DNA of 61,431 nt, the filler included, from Diploschistes diacapsis (taxonomy: Eukaryota), in NCBI GenBank assembly GCA_023645945.1. It is 5 parts of 5 records of this genome, joined end to end, with 100 filler letters (N's around TTAATTAATTAA, not from the genome) between each part and the next. Parts side by side here need not be neighbours in the genome. Positions count along the whole stretch, not along the records: positions 1 to 30,525 come from JALAIB010000126.1; 4 more parts are not named here. One strand, given 5' to 3'. The notes below the pieces were generated by a model. The model did not search any database, was not told the origin of the DNA, and worked only from the letters and a program-made list of their open reading frames with translations. The position numbers were made by a program, and so were the translations under genes. Positions 11,405 to 24,600 of this stretch are shown here, one piece after another. The number at the start of each line of letters is the position of its first letter. The first letter of the stretch is position 1.

Positions 11405-11994
11405 TGTGGTGAAATGAGGAGCGCAGGATATCGCAGTTTAGTATTAGGAATTTACCAACATGATGGGGCACAACGCGGTAAAGGTACTCTATCACTTATT
11501 GGGTATAGCGCGCGGGTCACATATAATCCGGCACTCTACAATGCCAGATCTCCAACATTTGATCAAACCAACCCAGAGTTAAGCGCAACTCCGAAATCAT
11601 GATCAGATGCCATGGTATAACCATTCGCACTATGAACAGTAATACCTGATCTAGATGAGGGCCCCAGGATACTGAAGTTTGGTTAGTGACTTTATGAGTA
11701 GCCTGTGGTCATGAGAGAAAGGAAGATAGATTGGACGGATGAGCTACGCAAAGCTCGGAGGATGTCCTGGATGTATATACACAGCTGCGTCCTGTTCATA
11801 GTATGAGATCTTTATGATGGTCTGTTGCTATCGGCTGCCTAGTTTGGCGTATCCCCCAGTGTGGCACTGATGTCCCAATATGCGTGCTCATGACAGCGTG
11901 GCACAGTCAGTTGGCTCGTAGATTTTCTTTATCTTGTTCCGGTTGTTACCTCTCCACCTTTTGTTCTCTTCTCTTATCCCTACAGTGAGAAACC

Positions 11995-13803
11995 ATGTAT
12001 AACCTTACCATTGAACCATCTCAAGCTTTGCAGCGGCAGTTCCCAATTTCTTCATTAACTACATCTAACAAGACGTTTGAGTACGGGCATCTGGAGTTTA
12101 GAAGAGAAGAATACGAGCAAGCCTGCGTTTATTATAGCATTATTCATGTCTTGAAATACTTCCCGATAGCATTCTTGATATACCTTATAGGCCTATGTTC
12201 TTACAGACTCTTTATTTCTCCCCTTCGGACCATTCCCGGTCCAGTCTTTGCTCGGCTCTCGATCGTTTGGCAGCTATGGCATGAAATGGGCAACAAGTAC
12301 GGGTTGAGTATATCGGAAACCCACAAGAAATACGGTACGAGTCCTCATAGATTGTCATAACAGAAAGCATTGACGCTGACATCGATAGGGCCATTCGTCC
12401 GAATCAGCCATGAAGAAGTCTCTGTTTGCCATCCTGAGGCAATCTCAAATATATTGCTCAAGCCACTCGACAAGCACAACTGGTATAAGATCTTCGCCAT
12501 GCCAGATAGCTCTTGGCCTAATCAAATGAATCAAACGAGTGCTAAGAAGTTTGCCATTACGCAAAAAAAGATTGCCAAAGGATATATGTTATCCAACGTG
12601 CTCAAGGCGGAAGCCGATTTTGACGAGACTATCCGCCGCTTCGAAAACTGTATTGATAGCTTGGCTGAGGCTGGCGAACCTATACAGCTTGATGCGTGGT
12701 TTACTTACTTCGCGTTTGACCTGGTGGGCCAAGCCACCTTCTCAAAGCCTTTCGGATTTCTTGAGCAGGGGCAAGACGTTAAAAATTGTATTGCCACTTC
12801 ACATGCGCTCATACCATATCTCACGGTGATGGCGCATTTCCCTCAATATCATGACTTTCTGATGCTGAACCCGTTGACCAAGTGGCTTAACTTTCAGCCG
12901 ATGAAGCATGTTATGGACACAACGACCCGGGCAGTGATAGAACGCGAGCAGTCATTGGTGTCCGGGAGCGATATGATGGAACACTGGAAGTCCCAGAAAG
13001 CTGGAGACCCTTTAACGCGGAGAGAGCTGTTGGCTACTGCTAACGCTAATGTTGCAGCTGGTGCGGACACAGTCGGAACTCAGATGCAGTCTTTCGTTTA
13101 TCTGATGCTACGACATCCAGAATGTTTACGAAGACTTCGGACGGAGCTCGACGAGGCTTTGCTCAAAAACAAGATATCGTCTCCAGTATCATATAATGCG
13201 TCCCAAGGTCTACAGTATTTTCAAGCTTGTGTAAGTGGGCCACCTCCTTCGTAATAGTTCACAGTACTAACAGTATGTTTAGCTCAAAGAAGTATATCGC
13301 CTGCATCCCACTTCTTTCAGTTCCATACCCCGAGTCGCTCCTAAAGAAGGTGTTAGGATAGGTGATCATATTTTCCCATATGGTGTAATGCATCCCGCTC
13401 TTTCTTTGTTTAGGCTGACATTTCGCATAGACTGTTGTCAGTGTGAATCCCTGGGCGATTCATAGAGATCCTTTAATTTGGGGGAAAGACGCCTCAATTT
13501 TTAAGCCAGATCGCTGGCTAGAGAACGATGGCAGAGCGCGGGAGCGAAACCTAATAAGCGTAAGGATAAGTCGCATCTCAGATTTATAATACTAAGGATT
13601 GCCATCAACAGTTTGGTGCTGGCTATATGCAATGCCCGGGCAAGCAGCTCGCACATGTGCAGCTATCAAAACTGCTCTCGACCTTGGTTCTGGACTACCA
13701 TTTAGAACTGGCAGACGCAAATAAAGAATGGCGCATTGCGAAGGCCTCATTTGTTGCAAGACCCTACGGTTGGGCTGTTAAGGCTAAGCGACGCAATACT
13801 TAG
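11995..13803 (+). CDS. Cytochrome P450 monooxygenase (5 exons)
   Basis: N-terminal TM helix and PLRTIPGP, I-helix AAGADT, ExxR (KEVYR), FKPDRW, heme motif FGAGYMQCPGKQLA. Introns at about 12335-12388, 13231-13281, 13384-13430 and 13560-13611; TAG at 13801-13803. Confidence 0.93.
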
Positions 13804-13892
13804 CTAATAGACTGTGTTGCGGCTAGATTTGAAGCAACCTGGTCTCAAGGCGCTTCATGCAAAAATGTTTTATAGAAGTAAGCCCTGGTGCT

Positions 13893-14916
13893 TTATTTGC
13901 CAGGTACTCTGCCAACAACGACGCGAATGACATGGGAAACATACGAGCCCAGCTGGATCTCTGCATGAGCGCCAATCGCGAGCTGCTTCACCTGGTTCGC
14001 CCTCTCAGGAGGCCCGTACTGCTCCAACATCGTTGCATGCTCGTCCGCTATCAGACACCAGAGGTCCGTGATCATATGTCTTTGATGCTGATGTTCAGAG
14101 TATGTCTCATCTGTAACGATATTGAAACCGTTTCGACTGAAACTCTCTGGGAGCTTGGCTATCCACCTATGGTCCATCAGTGTTATCATCATTGTAAATC
14201 TAGGAGCTAGGAGCCAGGAACTGTCGCAAGCCTACTGTGTCTGCTTTGTGTGTGCCCAGATATCCCTCAAAGCCTGCAAGCATGGAATTGGCGCTGAACC
14301 CAGATATGGCCGAAGACGAAATGCCAATGGATCCATCTCATCCCACTGTAGAAATCCACCGGGCTCTAGTAAAGCCTCACGTTAGAGAAGCATGGGCCAC
14401 AGGAGTTGTTTGGACACATACTTAGAAGCTTGGTGCAATGATCCAGCCAGGGCATAGGGTCATTGTTTTCCACCACGGCCATCAACAGTCGGATGTGGAC
14501 TACATCGTATTTCCCATACAAAGATTCGGGAGGGTCTAGTGTGGCGTCAAGTTTGCTTAACGTGACGTTCTTGGGCAGAAATGTAGGATGAGGGAATTGA
14601 GCATCGGATATGTCGAAGCCATCGAATTGAACAGATGATGGCGCTTGCCGAGCTACTTCACAAGGCCAGATCCCAGTACCGGTAGCAATATCGGCAACCT
14701 TGTTTCCTTCTTTCAACTGGATCTGAGGGTGCATATTAAAGCCAATGGCTTCTCTCCAGAGGTGGAACTGGAAGTTCAGTCTGATTGTTAATTACAATGG
14801 GGCTTCACACTGGGAAGGATGGCGCATTACCTCACCGAAGCCAAATAGCCTCTAGCAAGAACATATTCGTTCTTTTGCGGCATAGGGCTTTGTGTCCGTC
14901 TCGGCTGAACGCTCAT
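13893..14916 (-). CDS. Class I SAM-dependent methyltransferase (fungal secondary-metabolism type)
   Basis: Spliced product contains YVLARGY..RLNFQFHLW, motif I VADIATGTGIW, GFDISDAQFP, YDVVHIRLL and LLKPGGFLQWDE; three GT-AG introns. Confidence 0.88.
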
Positions 14917-15854
14917 TTTCTGGGTTACCACTGCTCAGCCTGGTTTGAAAGAAGCTGATCGCAGTACAAAGGATCAGGGCGGCCGACGAGAATGCAATCT
15001 ATTCAGAGATTGATAATCGAATTTGGGGTCTATCGCAGCCTTGGACAAGAGGTCAGCGAGAGTGGTACCAGGCGTGCAGCGACTTACCCACCAATCGGCC
15101 TCGATCACCGCCACTTAATTGCTTGGTGGTGCAACGCGGCTTGTTGTCCGATTCGATTCAGCTAGCCCAGGGGCCATATTGGTAAAAATACTCCTTTGTT
15201 CTGTTAATCCCCGCTAATGTCTTGATTAAGTTAGGTGTTGCCTCTGCTCGCCAGTATCAGTATCAGCACTACTAACTTGATACGGTTTGAAAATCCTGAC
15301 ACCTTACCTTGCAGAGTGCTTCCTTTTGCTATCTCGTTGTCTTCTGCTGGTCCATGAGCGCTGATCCTATTCCAACAGTCAACGGCTCAGAAGGATCCTG
15401 GTATAGCGTGCTTAGAAGGGGAGACATAGACGGGCGTAACAAACGTAAGTTTCAGACCTAAGGATTTCTTAACGTCTTCTTCTTTGAGGTGCAGTAGTGC
15501 TAGCACTGATTTTGCCCCTGAGTGTTTTGGACTCAAACATTTCACGGTAACATTGGACATCGATGCTGTTGTGTTTTGCCATAGCCATGACTTCGACCTA
15601 GTGATACATAGAGGTCTGGCAAATGGGTCACAATCTGTCAGCATGCTGTTGGAGAATCGTCCGGAAGAGTGCTATACATCCTTTAACGCTGACAATGTCA
15701 TGAACCGAACGACTCAATCAGAAGGTGCCCTTGGATAAAGAATGCTCTCGGGTGGAACGTGCCGTGCTTTTCTAGTGTTCTTTATTTCTATATCATCCGT
15801 CTAATAGAATATATTTCTGGCTCTCTGAATACACCTCTACTGTTTTTCTACAGT

Positions 15855-17114
15855 ATGACCTCGCTCCCTAGACTGGCTGGTACAAAGCCTGTGCAGCCTC
15901 TCGTGCTGCTCTATCCGGCCAAACTCTGGTTTGGAAGCCAAAGGCGTACCTTTACCAGGTTAACCGCGCTACACTTACATTCTCGCTCACCCCTGATACA
16001 TTCCTCGACTCGCCGTCTAGCAACTACGTTAAAATCGATCTCGGCCCCTCTTATTGATCCCCAGTCTCGCCAGATTTCTAAGCCCAGCACCGAGGTCCCC
16101 AGTGTTGAGCCAGCTGCATCCAACTCTCAGCGGGGTGTTCTTTCAATTCTACCGCGATCATGGGTACCCTATGCTGAACTCATGCGAATTGAAAAGCCAG
16201 GTGGACTCTGGGGCTTCTATTTTCCATATCTTATTGGATTAGGATATGCAGCCTGCATCCATCCCGCCTTAGAGCCAACAACCATTCTCACCACTGGTGG
16301 CTTATTATTGGCTTGGAATGTTATCCTCCGGGGAGCTGCTTGTACTATCAATGACAATTTCGACCGCGACTATGACCGGCAAGTCGCACGGTGCCGCAAT
16401 CGGCCAATCGCTCGAGGCGCAGTGAAGCCTCTACAGGGCCATGTGTTTTACGCAGGTCAGACGATGATCGCGGCCGGTACTGTTGCTTTATTACCGCATG
16501 CGGCTGACTGCTTCCACCATGCACCCGCAATTCTGTTTCTGCTGAGCATTTACCCGCTGGCGAAGCGTGTTACGGATTTCCCACAGCTTGTCCTCTGTAT
16601 CCCGTTGGCATGGGGCATCCTCATGTCCTGCTCAGCGCTGGGAGTGGATCCATTCACTGTTCAGCAGGGAACAATGGCCGCGGCAACTTGGTCACTTGTG
16701 GCATCAAATGCGCTTTGGTTAATGATGCTTGACTATGTCAATGCATGTCAGGACACGATCGATGACCTCAAGGCAGGTGTCCGGTCGATGGCTGTACGCT
16801 ATCAAAATACAGCAAAGTTCATCACGGTACTTGGCATCGCTCAGACCTCACTCATGCTTACTGCTGGTTATCTGGCTGGACTGGGACCAATCTATTTTAT
16901 TATTTCTTGTGGAGGCAATGCTTCTTTCATAGCTTGGATGGCGCAGACCGTGGATCGGACCCGACCGGAGACATGCGCCTGGTGGTTCAAGAATGGCAGC
17001 CTTATCGTCGGTGGTGTTAGTGTGGCAGGACTGTTCGGTGAATATACTTGGAATCGCTTTGAGGAATCGAGCCTAGCCCGCAAGGAAGACCACTTGGCAG
17101 ACGTTACAATTTAG
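15855..17114 (+). CDS. UbiA-family aromatic prenyltransferase (COQ2-like, secondary-metabolite type)
   Basis: Intronless 419-aa ORF from ATG 15855. Contains PYAELMRIEKP, Asp-rich motif NDNFDRDYDRQVARCRNRPIARG, YPLAKRVTDFPQ, second motif DYVNACQDTIDDLKAGVRS and many TM helices. The N-terminus is basic and Ser/Thr-rich, like a presequence. Confidence 0.92.
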   Translation: MTSLPRLAGTKPVQPLVLLYPAKLWFGSQRRTFTRLTALHLHSRSPLIHSSTRRLATTLKSISAPLIDPQSRQISKPSTEVPSVEPAASNSQRGVLSILPRSWVPYAELMRIEKPGGLWGFYFPYLIGLGYAACIHPALEPTTILTTGGLLLAWNVILRGAACTINDNFDRDYDRQVARCRNRPIARGAVKPLQGHVFYAGQTMIAAGTVALLPHAADCFHHAPAILFLLSIYPLAKRVTDFPQLVLCIPLAWGILMSCSALGVDPFTVQQGTMAAATWSLVASNALWLMMLDYVNACQDTIDDLKAGVRSMAVRYQNTAKFITVLGIAQTSLMLTAGYLAGLGPIYFIISCGGNASFIAWMAQTVDRTRPETCAWWFKNGSLIVGGVSVAGLFGEYTWNRFEESSLARKEDHLADVTI

Positions 17115-17520
17115 GGAAGGCGTAGGATCGGAGACGCCCCAAACACACTAGAAAAGCAAAAGAAGCAAGGAGATAGCGCCATCATAGTGCGTTTTTTATA
17201 AAGTTGAATATGCATTTTGTCCCCCAAGTTGTAGGCTAATTCTTGCAAAACATCCAGCTCCAACATCGGAGTAAGCAACCACATGATTTCAAGGATATTC
17301 GGTAAATGATCAGAAATAGATAGATGCAATGCAACGATGATAGTTGCATTTCGAACTCATTAGAGTAGCAACAAGGGTGAGGCTTTTCACAGCGCTAGGA
17401 ATAATCCCTGCGATTGGTCCAAACTTCACAATGTCACGTTGGCTGCATCTACATTGCCATATGTATTTTTAATGCAACCATGTCTCTGTACGACAAGGCC
17501 TCAGCTACCTGCAGTGCTAC

Positions 17521-17931
17521 TGTGGTTTCGCTATATATATCAGTTTAGTTCAATACTGGCAGAATCCAGTATTGTTGGCCTTCTGGCTATGTGGCCTAGC
17601 GGTACTAAACTGGCGCTTTGTAATATCACATTATACTGGATTCTAATTGGGAATAGGCAGAGGTCTGGTTCGATGCTCGGTAAGCCCTTACACCCATCAA
17701 GGTATACTATTAGTGTAGTCCTCGTTGGACCTAATAGGGTAACCCTTGGGATCTATATATATAGTTCATCTTGCCTGCCAGCTGTAAATGTTTCGGGACG
17801 AAACGTTTAAGTGGGGGAGGATGTGGTTTCGCTATATATATCAGTTTAGTTCAACACTGGCAGAATCCAGTATTGTTGGTCTTTTGGTTATGTGGCCTAG
17901 CGGTACTAAACTGGCGCTTTGTAATATCACA
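17521..17931 (+). mobile_element. Miniature non-autonomous LTR retroelement (TRIM-like), 411 bp
   Basis: 110-bp direct repeats at 17521-17630 and 17822-17931, each TGTG...CACA, 106/110 identical. 4-bp flanking duplication CTAC (17517-17520 and 17932-17935). Polypurine tract AAGTGGGGGAGGA directly before the 3' LTR. No RT or integrase coding capacity in the 191-bp interior. Confidence 0.88.
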
Positions 17932-18319
17932 CTACTGCCAGTTAAGCTGACCTCCGTGCCATGTTGTGTTGGTATTTTTCTATGTGGAACAACCGATTTC
18001 GTCTGGTAACAGCACGTCTAAGTTGCGACTCGGTGTCTCATCCAGAGGCTTTAGCGTCAACTAACTGGTCTGCATACAAGTTTATTATTTATTTTCTTTT
18101 TTAGTGGCTGTGTTGTAGGCGCCATGCCAGCTGTCGAACAAAGTTTGGGTATCAAAAGGACGGTAGACCCGTTTTAGAAGACGACTTCGAATTATGCATT
18201 GAAATTGGCTATACCTAGTACCTCTCGGAATTTCATCCTCAAATATCTATTCTGCTCATCATTCTTTTGCAAAGCCCTATTTCTAGTGCAAATTCGGCTG
18301 CATTTCAGCGTTTGTAGAT

Positions 18320-19507
18320 ATGAGCTCGATACCTAACGAGCGCGGCTGGCAAGAAATTAGGGTCGATATTGCCCTGACTTGTCTTGCTGTACTTGCGGTG
18401 GCATTGCGGTTCTTCACCAGACTCAAGAAAGGAACGAAGATCGGGACAGACGACTGGCTTGCGCTGAGTGGATTGGTGTTTCTTTTGGCATTGTTTATAG
18501 AGCTTCTGTTGTGTGAGTAACCTCCTTTGGAGTACTCAGGAGTTTCTGTGATTAATGGTAATTGCAGGGCCCACTATTGCAGGCCAGGGAAAGCATTTTG
18601 AAGAACTTAGCCCTCCGCAAATTGAAGCCTTCTTTAAAGTAAGAAAGCCGAATAGCTTCGGAGGCCTTATGGCTGAGATTTGCAGATCTTTCTCGCGAAC
18701 GAATTAACCTACTCAATTACCAGTCCGCTGATCAAGATCTCCATTATTACATTATATAGTCGCATTTTTACGACACCGCAATTTGTGTTTGTGGCCAAAG
18801 CTCTTATAGCTCTTGTTATAGCCTGGGGAGCTGCCACTTTTCTAGCAGCGGCTCTCCAGTGCCGACCTCTCGCTGCAGTATGGGATCCCACAATCCACGG
18901 GGAGTGCTTCAATACAGAGCAGTACATCCTAGGGATCCAAGGAGTCAACATTGCTCTTGATTTTGCCATCCTGTTGCTGCCGATTCGTCCAGTATGGGGT
19001 CTTCACCGGCCATGGCAGGACAAGATGGCCCTTTCCGCAGTATTTCTTGTTGGAACTTTGTTAGTGGTCTCATGACACCTTTCCGTTAATCGCTAATTTT
19101 AAGCAGCGTTTGTTGTGCTAGCATTTATCGCCTCGTGACTCTGTTAAAGATTAGTCCGCTCGATGTGTCCTGTAAGTGACCGTTACCGGATAATATAGAT
19201 ACTCAAAAGGCAGATGGCACTGATTGCGCATGCAGACACTACCTATGAAGGAGCGATCTGGACGTATGTCGAGCCATGTATAGGACTCGTTTGCGCCTGC
19301 CTCCCGATAATTCGGGGCCTCTTTCCCGTGTACAGTGTCAAGAAGCGCAGCACTTATGGTAAAAGGTGTCAATCCCCAGCCGTGATATTTCGCAACCCTA
19401 ATGGGAGTATGGGACACAGTACCGAGGTCAATGCACCCTACTTTGCGATGGAGAGCTCAAGAAATCGTTCGCTACTGGCAGAAGAAGAACGCAAGAACAA
19501 GAGCTAG
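18320..19507 (+). CDS. PTH11-like (fungal rhodopsin-domain) multi-pass membrane protein without CFEM
   Basis: Motifs LAVALRFFTR...GTDDWL, IKISIITLYSRIF, QCRPLAAVWD...GEC, NIALDFAILLLP, CASIYRL and WTYVEPCIGLVCACLP; four GT-AG introns. Confidence 0.85.
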
Positions 19508-19850
19508 AGTTCGGTAGAGACTACGAAAGCCTCGAAGAAGATTTCAAGTTCAGAATTCACCATGATTGGCTTGCATAGCGTGTTCAAATTATGTAGATAG
19601 CTAAAGATTTGTACAAAAATATATCTACTGCCAAGCCTTCGGGCTTTTTGGGTTATCTCCGTAGCGCAGCCGCAATCGAGCAAGTACAGTCACGTGCCTA
19701 CAGGTAAATTAAATCACTACTAACCCAATCTTGAAACAGGTTTCTTTCTACGCAAGTGCACAGATATCAAGAAGCAGTCTCGCAAGTTTTGTAATGATGG
19801 TGGCTATAGAATACAATATCTGGCATTCTCAAGTTTATCTCTTATAAGGA

Positions 19851-20658
19851 TCACTGCACTGCGATGTTTTGCACAATTTTCAGTACCGTCTCAGGCTGGC
19901 TGAGGAACGGTGAATGGCCGGAAGAACAAATCTCCGTTCGAAAACCATTCCCAAATGTCTCAACCATCATCTTCTGGGCTTGATAGGGCAACGCTTGATC
20001 GTTCTCGCAGTATAAATAGGTCGCAGGACAGTGCTGATAAGCTGCATTGGTGATTGGAGTCAATTGAGCCTTTGCGAGCTGTGGTTGAAGTATCTCGATC
20101 CACTGTTCCTTCTCAGTATCGGGAATATCGTTGTAGAAACGAGTCTCCGGGTTATCCATCAAACAGGAACCATCCGCCTAATAATTGTCAGCACTCATAG
20201 CTTTCCGAAACTTATGCACGTCTGGGACTCAGGGTATGCACTTGAACTGAAATATAGGGCGGAAGCTGCCCTCCGAGCGCACTACCCAAGGAAGCGCCCA
20301 CCGGAACGATAAAAGCAGCGAGGTAGACTAGGTGGATAACGCCGCCCGAGAGCCCCTTGGACTGGCGGGCTTGCTTAGTGATGTCCTTCGTGATGGCTTG
20401 GGTTCCGACAATTCCTCCGTAGGAATGCATGACGACTATCACGTCTCGAGCTTTCTCCACTAACGCTGCGGTGGCATCGTAAATGGTTTTAACATCGTCA
20501 GCAAGAGGGTCCGTCAGAGTCAGATTCCCAGTAGACGGCTGCGCAGGGCATTCGGTCTCATAGCCAGCGGCTTGAAACACCTTAATGACAGGGCCGAAAT
20601 GCTTTGGACTATGCCAAGAGCCATGAACGAAGAGAACTGTGGGCTTAGGAGCAGACAT
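19851..20658 (-). CDS. Alpha/beta hydrolase (Abhydrolase_6/methylesterase-like)
   Basis: VLFVHGSWH oxyanion motif, nucleophile elbow MHSYGG, YLAAF, acid in YCENDQALP and catalytic His in SGHSPFLS; one intron at about 20178-20240. Confidence 0.9.
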
Positions 20659-21387
20659 GGCGAAAATGAAGAATCGTTCGAGTTTGCTTGTGGGTGTGCC
20701 TCTCAAACAATGGATCCGAAGGAGCCTTAAGTAAAGCTAATGAGCTATTTCTGATTTAACAGCAGGCCAAACTTATGCAAAAACACTCAACGCGGTCTGA
20801 CTATTAGCGCCCCTTATCATCGTCTCAGGAGCCAGGTAAACAGACAAGCATGCGCTAACAGCAAGGCTGCGCTAGGGAGATCATGGGTGTAGAGCTGAAA
20901 GCTCGGCCTTTCGAGCCAGCGTCGATTCATGCAAGGCAACAACAATGCCTGCTCCATTCCGACGTGGCTCTGAACCCAGTTGCTGCAGCAGTGCGTTGCA
21001 ATCAATAAATCACGGCACGGATTCGCTGCATCGCTGACCCCCGATCATACCTAGTAACCGTATGCAGCACCAAGCACCAGCGAGAAGACGCCTTTCACGA
21101 ACTTCGGATAAAATCATATGACATGGCGCTTCGCAATCGCCCCCTGTATTTTATTTATGTTGATGTGGTAGGACAAAGCTCACTCACTGGCACGTTACTT
21201 GCAATTTGGAAATGTCACTTAGTTGCTATCGTCATGGTGTGTTCCCCCTTTCATTTCAGTCAAGCGAATGAATAAGTTGAATATATTGCTTGACACAAAC
21301 TTCCTTCTTCATGCCACAAGGCCAACGCTGAAGTCCTCGACATTCGTCACTTATTCAACTCTCAATTTCAAAGGTTTCTGAAAGACG

Positions 21388-23151
21388 ATGGGGAAGAAGG
21401 GGCTACCCACGACTATCCAGGAGTGGAATGATAGTACCACATGCCCGGAACGCGAAGAGTTGACTCAATCTATGGCCGCCAATGTTCCTAGTCATGGCTA
21501 CCCCAATGGCTTTAAACTGGCTATTATTGTCGTGGGCCTTTGCCTCTCTGTATTCTGTATGGCGCTTGATAACACCATTATCGCCACAGCTATCCCTCGC
21601 ATCACCGACGAGTTCAATTCACTTCAGGATATCGGTTGGTATGGGTCTGCATACCTCTTAACAACATGCGCCTTCCAGCTGTTTTACGGAAAGCTCTATT
21701 CTCTATTCAATATCAAGATCGTCTATCTTGCGGCTCTTTTCTTCTTCGAAGCAGGTTCTTTAATATGCGCCCTAGCACCAAATTCAACCGCCCTCATAGT
21801 CGGCAGAGCCATCGCTGGCTTTGGCGCGGCTGGTGTGTTTACAGGTGTGCTGCTCATCATCGCGCATATCTGTCCGGTTCATAAGCGACCAGTATACACG
21901 GGTATAGCTGGAGCTATGTACGGTCCTGCTTCGGTCGTTGGACCTTTGATTGGGGGTGCTTTTACGGACAATGTTACCTGGAGATGGTGAGCAACCCGCA
22001 TAATAGCCAAGTGAATATGTTTATCTAACTTGGCAAGGTGTTTCTATATAAACCTACCGCTTGGTGCTGTCACTGCGCTTGTTATCTTGATCTTTCTGAG
22101 ATTACAATCCAATAGTCAGCAGGAAAGAAGCTCGAGTTTATTTCAAACAATCTGGCAACTGGATCCATTAGGTACTTTCACGTTTGTTCCTGGCATCATC
22201 TGTCTTTTGATGGCATTACAATGGGGAGGTACCACATACGCCTGGAACGATGGCAGAGTAGTTGCCCTTTTGACGGTTTTTGCCCTTCTTCTTAGCGGCT
22301 TCATTACCAGCCAGTACTGGCTGGGGGATATAGCAACCGTTCCTCCAAGGATAGTATCACAGAGAACGATTGCATTTAGCTCTCTCTTCGGCATTCTACT
22401 CGGGGCAGCCTTCTTCTTGCTTACATATTTCTTGCCGGTGTGGTTCCAGGCAATCAAGGGAACCGACGCGTTACATTCTGGTATAGATAGTATTCCTTTG
22501 ATCCTTACTATGACGATCGGAGTCATTCTCTCCGGAGGACTAACGACAAAGTTTGGGTATTATATGCCTTTCGTGCTAGCGAGTCCAGTCTTGACCTCGA
22601 TCGGAACCGGACTCATTACCACCTTTGTATCAGATACTGCTACGGGTAACTGGATCGGATACCAGATCCTATTCGGCCTTGGCTGTGGTCTTGCTTTTCA
22701 AGTACCACAGATCGCAGCACAGACCGTGCTGCCCTTGCAAGACGTTGCACAGGGTGTTTCGATTACATTCTTTGCCGAGACACTTGGTGGAGCTCTTTCT
22801 GTGAGCATAGGCAATAACGTTCTTAACAATAAGCTTGTTCAATACATCGGAGCTCTGAACATCCCGAATATCGACCCACAAGTGATCGTACGACTTGGGG
22901 CTACGGAGCTCCGAAACTATGTTCCGTCACAGTATGTGGCCCAAACGATTATCGCATATAACGAAGCCCTGGTTAACACATTCCGCATTGCCCTCGTTGT
23001 GGCATGCCTTAGCGCTTTGGGCGCGGTCGGGATGGAATGGAAATCTGTACATAACCCAGTGGAGAAGCTGGCAGATTCCGAAGTTGCTTCAAAGGACGAG
23101 GTGGGAAACCAAGATCGAGAAGCCCCTGCATCTCATGCTATGTTAGGTTAG
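21388..23151 (+). CDS. MFS drug/toxin:H+ antiporter, 14-TM (DHA2) type
   Basis: Motifs [65 protein letters not shown] and PVWFQAIKG; one intron at about 21987-22038. Confidence 0.95.
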
Positions 23152-24135: not shown

Positions 24136-24513
24136 CTAATTTGCCACATCCTTCGCAGACCAGCTATTACGGATCACCTCATCTGCGTCGGCACCACGGT
24201 TCGCAATATCCTTAGCTGACCAGCTATTGCGGATAACTTCGTCTGCATCTGCGTCTGCGTCTGCGTCTCGGTTCGCAATGTCCTTTGCCGACCAGCTATT
24301 GCGGATGAACTCATCGGCGCCATTCTCGCGATTGACAATGTCCTTGGCAGACCAACTATTTCGGATAACTTCGTCGGCATCAGCATTGCCTTTATCTTAT
24401 CAGTTTGACAATCGTATATTATGCTTTCGTATCTACTTACTATTAGGGGTGGGCAAAGCCCAAGCAACCCCAGTGAACAGCAACAAAGAGGGGAACCAGG
24501 TATTGTATCTCAT
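24136..24513 (-). CDS. Secreted repeat-peptide precursor (candidate fungal RiPP/dikaritin-like precursor), 108-110 aa
   Basis: Exon 1 (24441-24513) encodes a signal peptide MRYNTWFPSLLLFTGVAWA-LPTPN. The intron has donor GTAAGT at 24440 and an acceptor at 24396 or 24390, both in frame. Exon 2 encodes NADADEVIRNSWSAKDIVNRENGADEFIRNSWSAKDIANRDADADADADEVIRNSWSAKDIANRGADADEVIRNSWSAKDVAN*. Adjacent to two DUF3328 genes. Confidence 0.9.
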
Positions 24514-24565
24514 ATTGGCAACAACTCGCAGTATAGGGTAAAAGGAATAGAGATACGAACAGAAA

Positions 24566-24600
24566 GAAAAGAAAAGAAAAGAAAAGAAAAGAAAAGAAAA
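24566..24600. repeat. (GAAAA)7 pentanucleotide microsatellite just upstream of the precursor ATG
   Basis: Seven perfect GAAAA units, read directly. Confidence 0.9.

Follow-up and report, generated by a model that had tools for sequence, protein, structure and literature searches.

Dikaritins and other ust-RiPS (ustiloxin from UstA, phomopsin from PhomA, asperipin-2a from AprA, epichloecyclin from GigA, and victorin) derive from precursors that combine a signal peptide with tandem core repeats, carry acidic residues before the core, and are encoded beside DUF3328 genes with two HxxHC motifs, as a pair in the case of ustiloxin. In the available part of PMC12435403 these motifs are described as a copper site. 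Alpha-factor-type precursors and Ste13-signature KEPs, as presented in the accessible text of PMC6339444 and PMC9769878, consist of a basic site, XA/XP dipeptides and a repeated peptide, and some basidiomycete examples have a Trp near the C-terminus. When repeat proteins were expressed in Pichia, cuts fell after single Arg residues and XA/XP dipeptides were removed in the manner of Ste13 (PMC9769878, same portion), whereas the accessible text of PMC6339444 gives the Ste13 signature as absent from the ustiloxin, phomopsin and epichloecyclin precursors. A tie of dikaritin to pheromone precursors, or a pheromone origin, has been raised in PMC9233826 and PMC7329392, and because DUF3328 neighbours were found for 17 of 76 KEPs homologous to Ste13-signature proteins in the available text of the latter, the combination of Ste13 signature and DUF3328 had already been hinted at.

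The window analysed here is a 61,431-nucleotide stretch of Diploschistes diacapsis DNA (GCA_023645945.1), along which all coordinates given without a locus name are counted. Only positions 1-30525 of it map to contig C291 of the genome, and the remainder falls outside that contig. The window contains a precursor gene that resembles those of dikaritins in its predicted signal peptide, tandem cores, acidic residues before the core and adjacent DUF3328 pair, and differs from them in its lack of a dibasic site, its Ste13-type spacers and its Tyr-free Trp core. Having neither the dibasic site nor the Tyr, it is, judged by its sequence, a variant of dikaritin precursors outside the described types. 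Victorin is a Tyr-free precedent. Our main reading, to which we give a probability of about 0.58, is that this would be the dikaritin-like precursor of a three-gene RiPP unit, matured by monobasic Kex2 cleavage, Kex1 and dipeptidyl trimming, with a Trp core oxidised by DUF3328 proteins. Taken singly, the proposal that the precursor yields a DUF3328-modified RiPP is highly probable.

The precursor gene occupies positions 24136-24513 on the minus strand, in two exons, and encodes a predicted secreted product of 108 amino acids with four near-identical cores. Exon 1 (24441-24513, minus strand, as are all features of this gene) runs from the ATG at 24513 through a predicted signal peptide of 19 residues (24457-24513) to the first residues of the N-terminal spacer. 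The signal peptide was called by a simple small-residue/xP rule only, from a hydrophobic stretch followed by a predicted cleavage site between A-W-A and L-P, and the homologues are alike in this respect. A phase-1 intron (24390-24440, GTAAGT...AAG, donor GTAAGT at 24440) follows, for which two in-frame AAG acceptors are available: that at 24390 gives a 51-nt intron and 108 amino acids, that at 24396 a 45-nt intron and 110 amino acids. The acceptor at 24390 was preferred because it lies 10 nt from the branch A, as against only 4 nt for 24396, which would be the less likely alternative. Left unspliced, the frame reaches a stop after 24 codons, and a phase-1 intron was modelled at the equivalent place in three homologous loci (L002, L003 and L005). 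A perfect (AAAGA)7.6 microsatellite lies at 24563-24600, 50 nt upstream of the precursor start codon, in the divergent intergenic region.

Frame translation of exon 2 (24136-24389) gave four repeats of the form DE(V/F)IRNSWSA-KD(I/V)(V/A)N, followed by the stop codon (24136-24138); three of the repeats continue into an Arg and a spacer and the last ends as Asn-stop. The cores are the 10-mer DEVIRNSWSA (core 1, 24346-24375), a version with Phe at position 3 (core 2, 24286-24315), core 3 (24214-24243) and core 4 (24154-24183), after which come a follower of five residues, the last of them Asn, and the stop. The follower K-D-I-V-N with its Arg makes the first of three IxNR monobasic sites (24328-24345, NR at 24328-24333); the second and third lie at 24268-24285 (NR at 24268-24273) and 24196-24213 (NR at 24196-24201). 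Between these sites and the cores stand the spacers EN-GA (24316-24327), four DA units forming a 6-nt microsatellite (24244-24267), and GA-DA (24184-24195), and the N-terminal spacer reads LP-TP-NS-NA-DA with the acceptor at 24390 or LP-TP-NN-KG-NA-DA with that at 24396. Across 90 pairwise codon comparisons the repeats differed by 39 synonymous and 9 non-synonymous changes, and this preponderance of silent differences argues that the frame is real coding sequence under constraint.

The NR sites and spacers are thus as the original prediction described them, and its statement that KR, RR and KK are lacking was confirmed for both splice forms, from which RK is absent as well. It did not mention the Lys right after each core (AK-D) or the Arg within the core (IR). 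The mature part of the precursor contains neither Tyr nor Cys. Within this single gene the missing dibasic pair is by itself not significant, since such a pair was also missing from 19-25% of the sequences when the mature part was shuffled 20,000 times (p about 0.2); four even spacers in one precursor (1/16) are likewise weak evidence, and the spacer register reaches significance only across homologues.

A first search for such homologues returned 2, a profile 27 hits and a wider profile 24, and cluster look-ups added further members; P0026, P0028 and P0047, which do not have the family layout, were dropped before all counts. Besides the window protein the family comprises 43 proteins and one locus frame (L005), 44 in all, several of which are nearly identical to one another or incomplete as gene calls. 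The genera named are Stictis, Icmadophila, Squamulea, Bimuria, Massariosphaeria, Mytilinidion, Xylaria, Nemania, Hypoxylon, Truncatella, Penicillium and Aspergillus, which we take to represent four classes of Pezizomycotina, and a DNA pattern scan yielded six metagenome loci with precursor homologues. The family core is D-[DE]-x-[VI]-[RKH]-N-S-W-S-A, with no Tyr in its profile. D1 and W8 were invariant in 57 ten-residue cores, position 2 was D or E in 55, position 4 V or I in 56, N6 and S7 were each kept in 54 and S9 in 55, and position 10 was A or E. Position 5 was R, K, H or G, with Arg or Lys in 42 cores and His or Gly in 15. The core-internal Arg (IR|N) was rejected as a cut site on the grounds of these 15/57 His/Gly cores and of an acidic P4. 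Two divergent subfamilies keep the spacer register: P0029, P0041 and P0043 have cores ending N(T/S)WD before RR or KR, and in P0015 the cores end in NSW(H/Q)E and carry Gly at position 5. In L003 (6078-6519) the first intron of the homologous precursor is probably of GC-AG type, and a second one interrupts a core.

We then considered where the conserved unit ends and where the chain would be cut. An R or K directly follows the core in 60 of 63 distinct linkers, and by eye 15 of 45 entries end directly after the last core, with 11 more ending two residues on (R/K plus one); the conserved unit therefore stops at SA. Most members also have a second basic site, most often 6 residues past the core (25/46). 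In the window gene K-D, which suits Kex2 poorly, stands directly after the core, and IxNR is the second site. In P0009, in P0018 and in some linkers of P0004/P0005 the second site provides the sole basic residue from one core to the next. These sole-basic linkers (P0004/P0005 and P0009), an aliphatic P4 and a last repeat that ends at N all support NR as a cut site, and we consider cleavage of the precursor after NR very likely; the claim needs amending in that NR would be one of two processing sites, the unit ending at SA and R or KR standing there in most homologues. Lack of dibasic sites likewise held for the window gene and, in at least one linker, for most members (30 of the 42 linker-bearing proteins, counting that of the window), but it is not family-wide, as the other 12 have KR or RR in every linker.

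The identity of the protease was judged from the residues around these sites. Kex2 takes Arg almost exclusively at P1, a P2 that varies (Lys best, followed by Arg, Thr, Pro, Glu, Ile) and an aliphatic P4, and Asn is not among the top-ranked P2 residues in the available text of PMC8528282; an acidic P1'/P2' is favoured according to the accessible part of PMC2515848. An acidic residue follows the Arg in R-DA and R-EN, and IxNR fits the LxxR Kex2 motif in the available text of PMC8528282. The K2PP effectors treated there are alike in their monobasic Arg with aliphatic P4, and differ in that a single pro-domain cut is made in a folded effector, as opposed to the repeated release of short peptides proposed here. 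Among 31 downstream monobasic Arg sites in the family, the window's 3 included, P4 was I, V, L or F in 22 and P2 was Pro in 10 and Asn in 8, with Pro, Thr or Ile at P2 in 16. Kex2 is on these features the probable NR cutter. Counting against the Kex2 model, in view of its P1 preference, the last-basic site is a single Lys (PK, AK, VK or TK) in 13 of 63 linkers; these sites, together with the non-canonical spacer dipeptides described below, hint that different enzymes, or ones of wider specificity, may be at work. Elsewhere the genome encodes a Kex2 orthologue, a type II membrane DPP IV and a second full-length S9 peptidase, the last of which we take to resemble secreted DPP V.

Spacer parity was scored as the distance from the last K or R to D1 in 60 distinct homologue linkers. 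It was even in 50 of them, or in 46 when only the last Arg was used, and 20 of 25 similarity groups were majority-even under either rule (p=0.002, optimistic, as are all p-values for parity and register, given groups that are hand-made and related). Three of the ten odd spacers have lost the Arg (PG, PQ, SH) and five become even if counted, post hoc, from an Arg further upstream; the two that are odd from canonical sites are KR-A-DA in P0021 (Penicillium chermesinum) and one P0007 linker, RR-A-EA-EA. The parity check on homologues proposed in the original prediction has now been run and came out largely in its favour, with Ala or Pro kept second and P0021 as a clear exception of odd length. 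When each group was represented by a single spacer and the DA units were taken out, 24 dipeptides had Ala or Pro only in second position and 1 only in first. The second residue was Ala or Pro in 140 of 168 homologue spacer dipeptides and neither in 28 (about 17%), which end in Thr, Val, Glu and others and include EE, SE and one DD; EN and NS in the window gene also end in neither. N-terminal spacers without K or R were even in 4/4 homologues and in the window gene, and nearest-acceptor splice models gave even lengths of 14 in L002, 12 in L003 and 14 in L005. N-terminal spacers that were odd from the signal cut were mostly even from an internal K or R, the exceptions being P0018 and P0041, and the gene calls behind them may read through introns. 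The simplest reading of these data is selection for a two-residue register with Ala or Pro second, and it is likely that the spacers are trimmed dipeptide by dipeptide. The trimming enzyme named in the original prediction is a separate matter: the register is kept, but the dipeptides without Ala or Pro second mean that it need not be Ste13, and a Ste13/DPP IV orthologue is only slightly favoured as the trimmer.

A maturation route can be proposed from these features. Signal peptidase would cut before Leu-Pro, after which the DUF3328 pair, as copper oxidases, would oxidise or cross-link the core; because the core has no Tyr, the likely partner would be the invariant Trp8, probably joined with Val/Ile4 or Asn6/Ser7. 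Kex2 in the Golgi would then cut after IxNR, the aliphatic P4 compensating for a non-basic P2, and Kex1 would take off the Arg, leaving inner repeats with an Asn end exactly as in the last repeat. Finally, a dipeptidyl aminopeptidase of Ste13/DPP IV type or broader would strip the spacer two residues at a time and halt at the acidic D-E or, one dipeptide later, at the cross-link. An acidic dipeptide as the stop signal is weakened by EE, SE and DD inside spacers, and the stop at DE may instead be set by the DUF3328 modification. In most homologues the other basic site, right after SA, would allow the follower to be removed; in the window gene this site is K-D, and the five-residue tail may be either kept, giving a 15-mer, or lost by carboxy-terminal trimming. 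According to the available text of PMC10540207, follower removal is unresolved even for epichloecyclins. The combination of monobasic cleavage with pheromone-like trimming put forward in the original prediction is thus largely supported by the comparative evidence, although monobasic cleavage by Kex2 was already known.

The two neighbouring UstYa/DUF3328 genes lie to the right of the precursor. Gene 1 (25304-26277, plus strand, divergent from the precursor) was modelled with 5 exons and 247 amino acids, and gene 2 (26336-27279, minus strand, convergent with gene 1) with 4 exons and about 230-253 amino acids. Both exceed the PF11807 cut-off, their exon models are open, and each has two HxxHC motifs; a sequence search of the PDB with one UstYa exon gave no match. 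Adjacency to the precursor means little by itself because the genome has 46 UstYa exon matches. In the two distinct homologous loci with enough flank (L002 and L003), however, the precursor is accompanied by orthologues of both UstYa genes (29-93% identity per exon to the window genes), and in gene model P0007 a UstYa fragment is fused to the precursor, so that the conserved unit comprises three genes. UstYa 2 or a fragment of it is present in L004, a near copy of L003, and in L005; L006 and L007 have no UstYa gene within the available DNA of each locus. The gene order is UstYa1-UstYa2-precursor in L002 and L003, as against precursor-UstYa1-UstYa2 in the window.

To the left of the precursor (11989-23151) are P450, methyltransferase, UbiA prenyltransferase, rhodopsin-domain, alpha/beta-hydrolase and MFS genes. 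The P450, methyltransferase, UbiA, hydrolase and MFS genes were set aside as cluster members after tblastn matched none of them in 20 kb of L002 or 8 kb of L003, loci which hold other methyltransferases that do not match the window's; of the remaining window genes, none recurs at homologous loci but for a weak rhodopsin-domain match (30%). Scanning of ORFs found no peptidase, tyrosinase or other tailoring gene common to the window, L002 and L003, a further difference from dikaritin clusters. The genes on the left possibly form a separate cluster or a lineage-specific set of tailoring genes.

Repeat ORFs with ordinary KR or RR sites occur in 4 of 20 other UstYa regions fetched from the same genome. 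An unusual Kex2 specificity of the organism is therefore unlikely, and the monobasic sites belong to the precursor family. Three repeat ORFs beside UstYa genes have KR/RR sites: L012 (1594-1830, cores with Tyr and Trp), L015 (4708-5253, Cys in the cores) and L017 (2673-2957, cores with His-rich stretches). A RiPP-like cluster of the same genome, L010 (524-6379, G000:C3821), encodes a precursor whose Phe/Tyr-rich core is preceded by KR-AP-KE-D spacers, adjoined by two UstYa genes and an S9 peptidase gene, possibly a cluster-encoded dipeptidyl peptidase. In L023 (1991-2620, G000:C4240; frame and strand putative) a long array near UstYa genes consists of five-residue units D-(V/M/L)-A-(A/S)-R, where Arg occurs only singly.

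Three other readings of this evidence were weighed against the main one. The same RiPP and the same dipeptide trimming could be served by other enzymes, a yapsin-type aspartic or trypsin-like protease accepting Lys or Arg, possibly opening the AK-D bond behind the core as well, and a dipeptidyl peptidase that is secreted or less specific. This reading, which we consider unlikely, would account for the single Lys at 13/63 last-basic sites, the K or R directly after 60/63 cores and the non-canonical dipeptides (xT 10, xV 5 and xE 3 among 92 dipeptide types counted per group), and the second full-length S9 peptidase would be a candidate trimmer; yet the aliphatic P4 (22/31) and the Pro, Thr or Ile at P2 (16/31) of the monobasic Arg sites fit Kex2, KR or RR stands in every linker of 12/42 members, and the Arg or Lys inside 42/57 cores would be open to a non-selective protease. 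The even spacers might also have arisen incidentally from 6-nt slippage in (GAC GCN)n, the acidic DA-D[DE] acting as a recognition leader for DUF3328 that an endopeptidase or single-residue aminopeptidases remove, with a final product shorter than the 10-mer. The DA tract of the window gene is indeed a hexamer repeat, DA accounts for 74 of the dipeptides in even spacers, the most frequent of the rest (GA, EA, VA, AA and NA) are one base change from DA, and, next to NSW, conservation is highest in the DA-D[DE]-x-[VI] stretch; ustiloxin-type repeats have a comparable acidic ED before the core in EDYXI (PMC6339444, accessible text). Slippage and neutral drift predict, however, a ratio of XA to DX near 8:6, and with types counted once per group 30:7 was observed (p=0.002, again optimistic), Pro was enriched among non-Ala second residues (13/40, p=0.01 against 1/6), and mostly non-DA spacers and N-terminal spacers across an intron stay even too, leaving slippage improbable as the explanation.

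Least probable of the readings, and by our estimate very unlikely, is a repeat precursor of pheromone or hormone type that releases linear peptides, its DUF3328 neighbours acting elsewhere or adding a small oxidation. Members such as P0010 (KR-DA-EA-DA-core) do have a textbook alpha-factor layout, the core has neither Tyr nor Cys, and DUF3328 proteins also work in non-RiPP pathways; the accessible text of PMC6339444 has the Ste13 signature generally dedicated to alpha pheromones, although the family core is unlike the Cys-bearing alpha-pheromone peptides given there. What speaks against linear pheromones is that the same two UstYa orthologues stand beside the precursor in L002 and L003 when all other neighbours differ, and that the core is nearly invariant over four classes. 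Pheromones diverge by lineage. The XA/XP dipeptides between cleavage site and peptide that mark alpha-pheromone precursors are present, whereas a Cys pair or a PYGxPxG core without DUF3328 linkage is not; this family differs further from alpha-factor-type precursors in being mostly monobasic and in having a follower between core and site, two linked DUF3328 genes and a core kept from class to class. The DUF3328-modified, dipeptide-trimmed repeat precursor continues to be our preferred reading. For the Trp chemistry predicted under it there is an analogy in plant burpitides (moroidin, lyciumin), whose Trp cross-links are made by BURP-domain enzymes, and in asperigimycins, whose cores also contain Tyr: copper-dependent cross-linking of the Trp side chain in repeat precursors would be the chemistry in common.

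Precursors of this kind would be passed over by current screens, as the original prediction anticipated. KEPs are defined in two published screens by at least three repeats split by KR, RR or KK (or also RK), which leaves the window gene outside the definition: the available text of PMC6339444 describes in silico cuts only at KR, RR and KK, and that of PMC7329392 a pipeline that requires KR, KK, RK or RR. The latter surveyed fungal sp. No.14919 and lists 9 KEPs for it, and its KEP table, in the available text, does not include GAW16192, a three-core homologue from that fungus; the omission is as predicted from the missing dibasic sites, and other filters could also explain it. In the same portion 34% of DUF3328-linked KEP repeats are without Tyr and one abundant DUF3328-linked type has Trp. 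The family core is not among the motifs named in the accessible text of PMC6339444, and the lichen survey in PMC12048977, in its available part, gives no precursor in its two conserved DUF3328 clans; PMC10840396, as far as its accessible text goes, proved unrelated. A literature search, with most subscription papers outside its scope, returned no account of the core, nor of dikaritin maturation that depends on Ste13. Members with KR sites may already have appeared in print, and the precursor family as a whole is widespread and seemingly undescribed. With dibasic sites missing from at least one linker in 30 of 42 members and GAW16192 omitted, screens for LxxR or xPR sites combined with an XA/XP register should recover more.

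Such a family makes two things testable with a cassette of three genes: the processing tie between dikaritin and pheromone precursors, and the action of DUF3328 enzymes on a Trp core without Tyr. A bolder form of the proposal, which we hold as tentative and rather doubtful, is a Pezizomycotina-wide RiPP family consisting only of the precursor and the DUF3328 pair, using the whole alpha-factor route, from monobasic Kex2 cuts through Kex1 to dipeptidyl trimming, and bearing a Trp-to-aliphatic cross-link on a Tyr-free core that hardly varies. If true, such a family would be directly intermediate between dikaritins and pheromone precursors, and its product might be a cyclised signal common to several classes. 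It would also be the first instance from a wider group of monobasic precursors that dibasic screens miss, a group that could explain many of the orphan DUF3328 clusters of lichen fungi.
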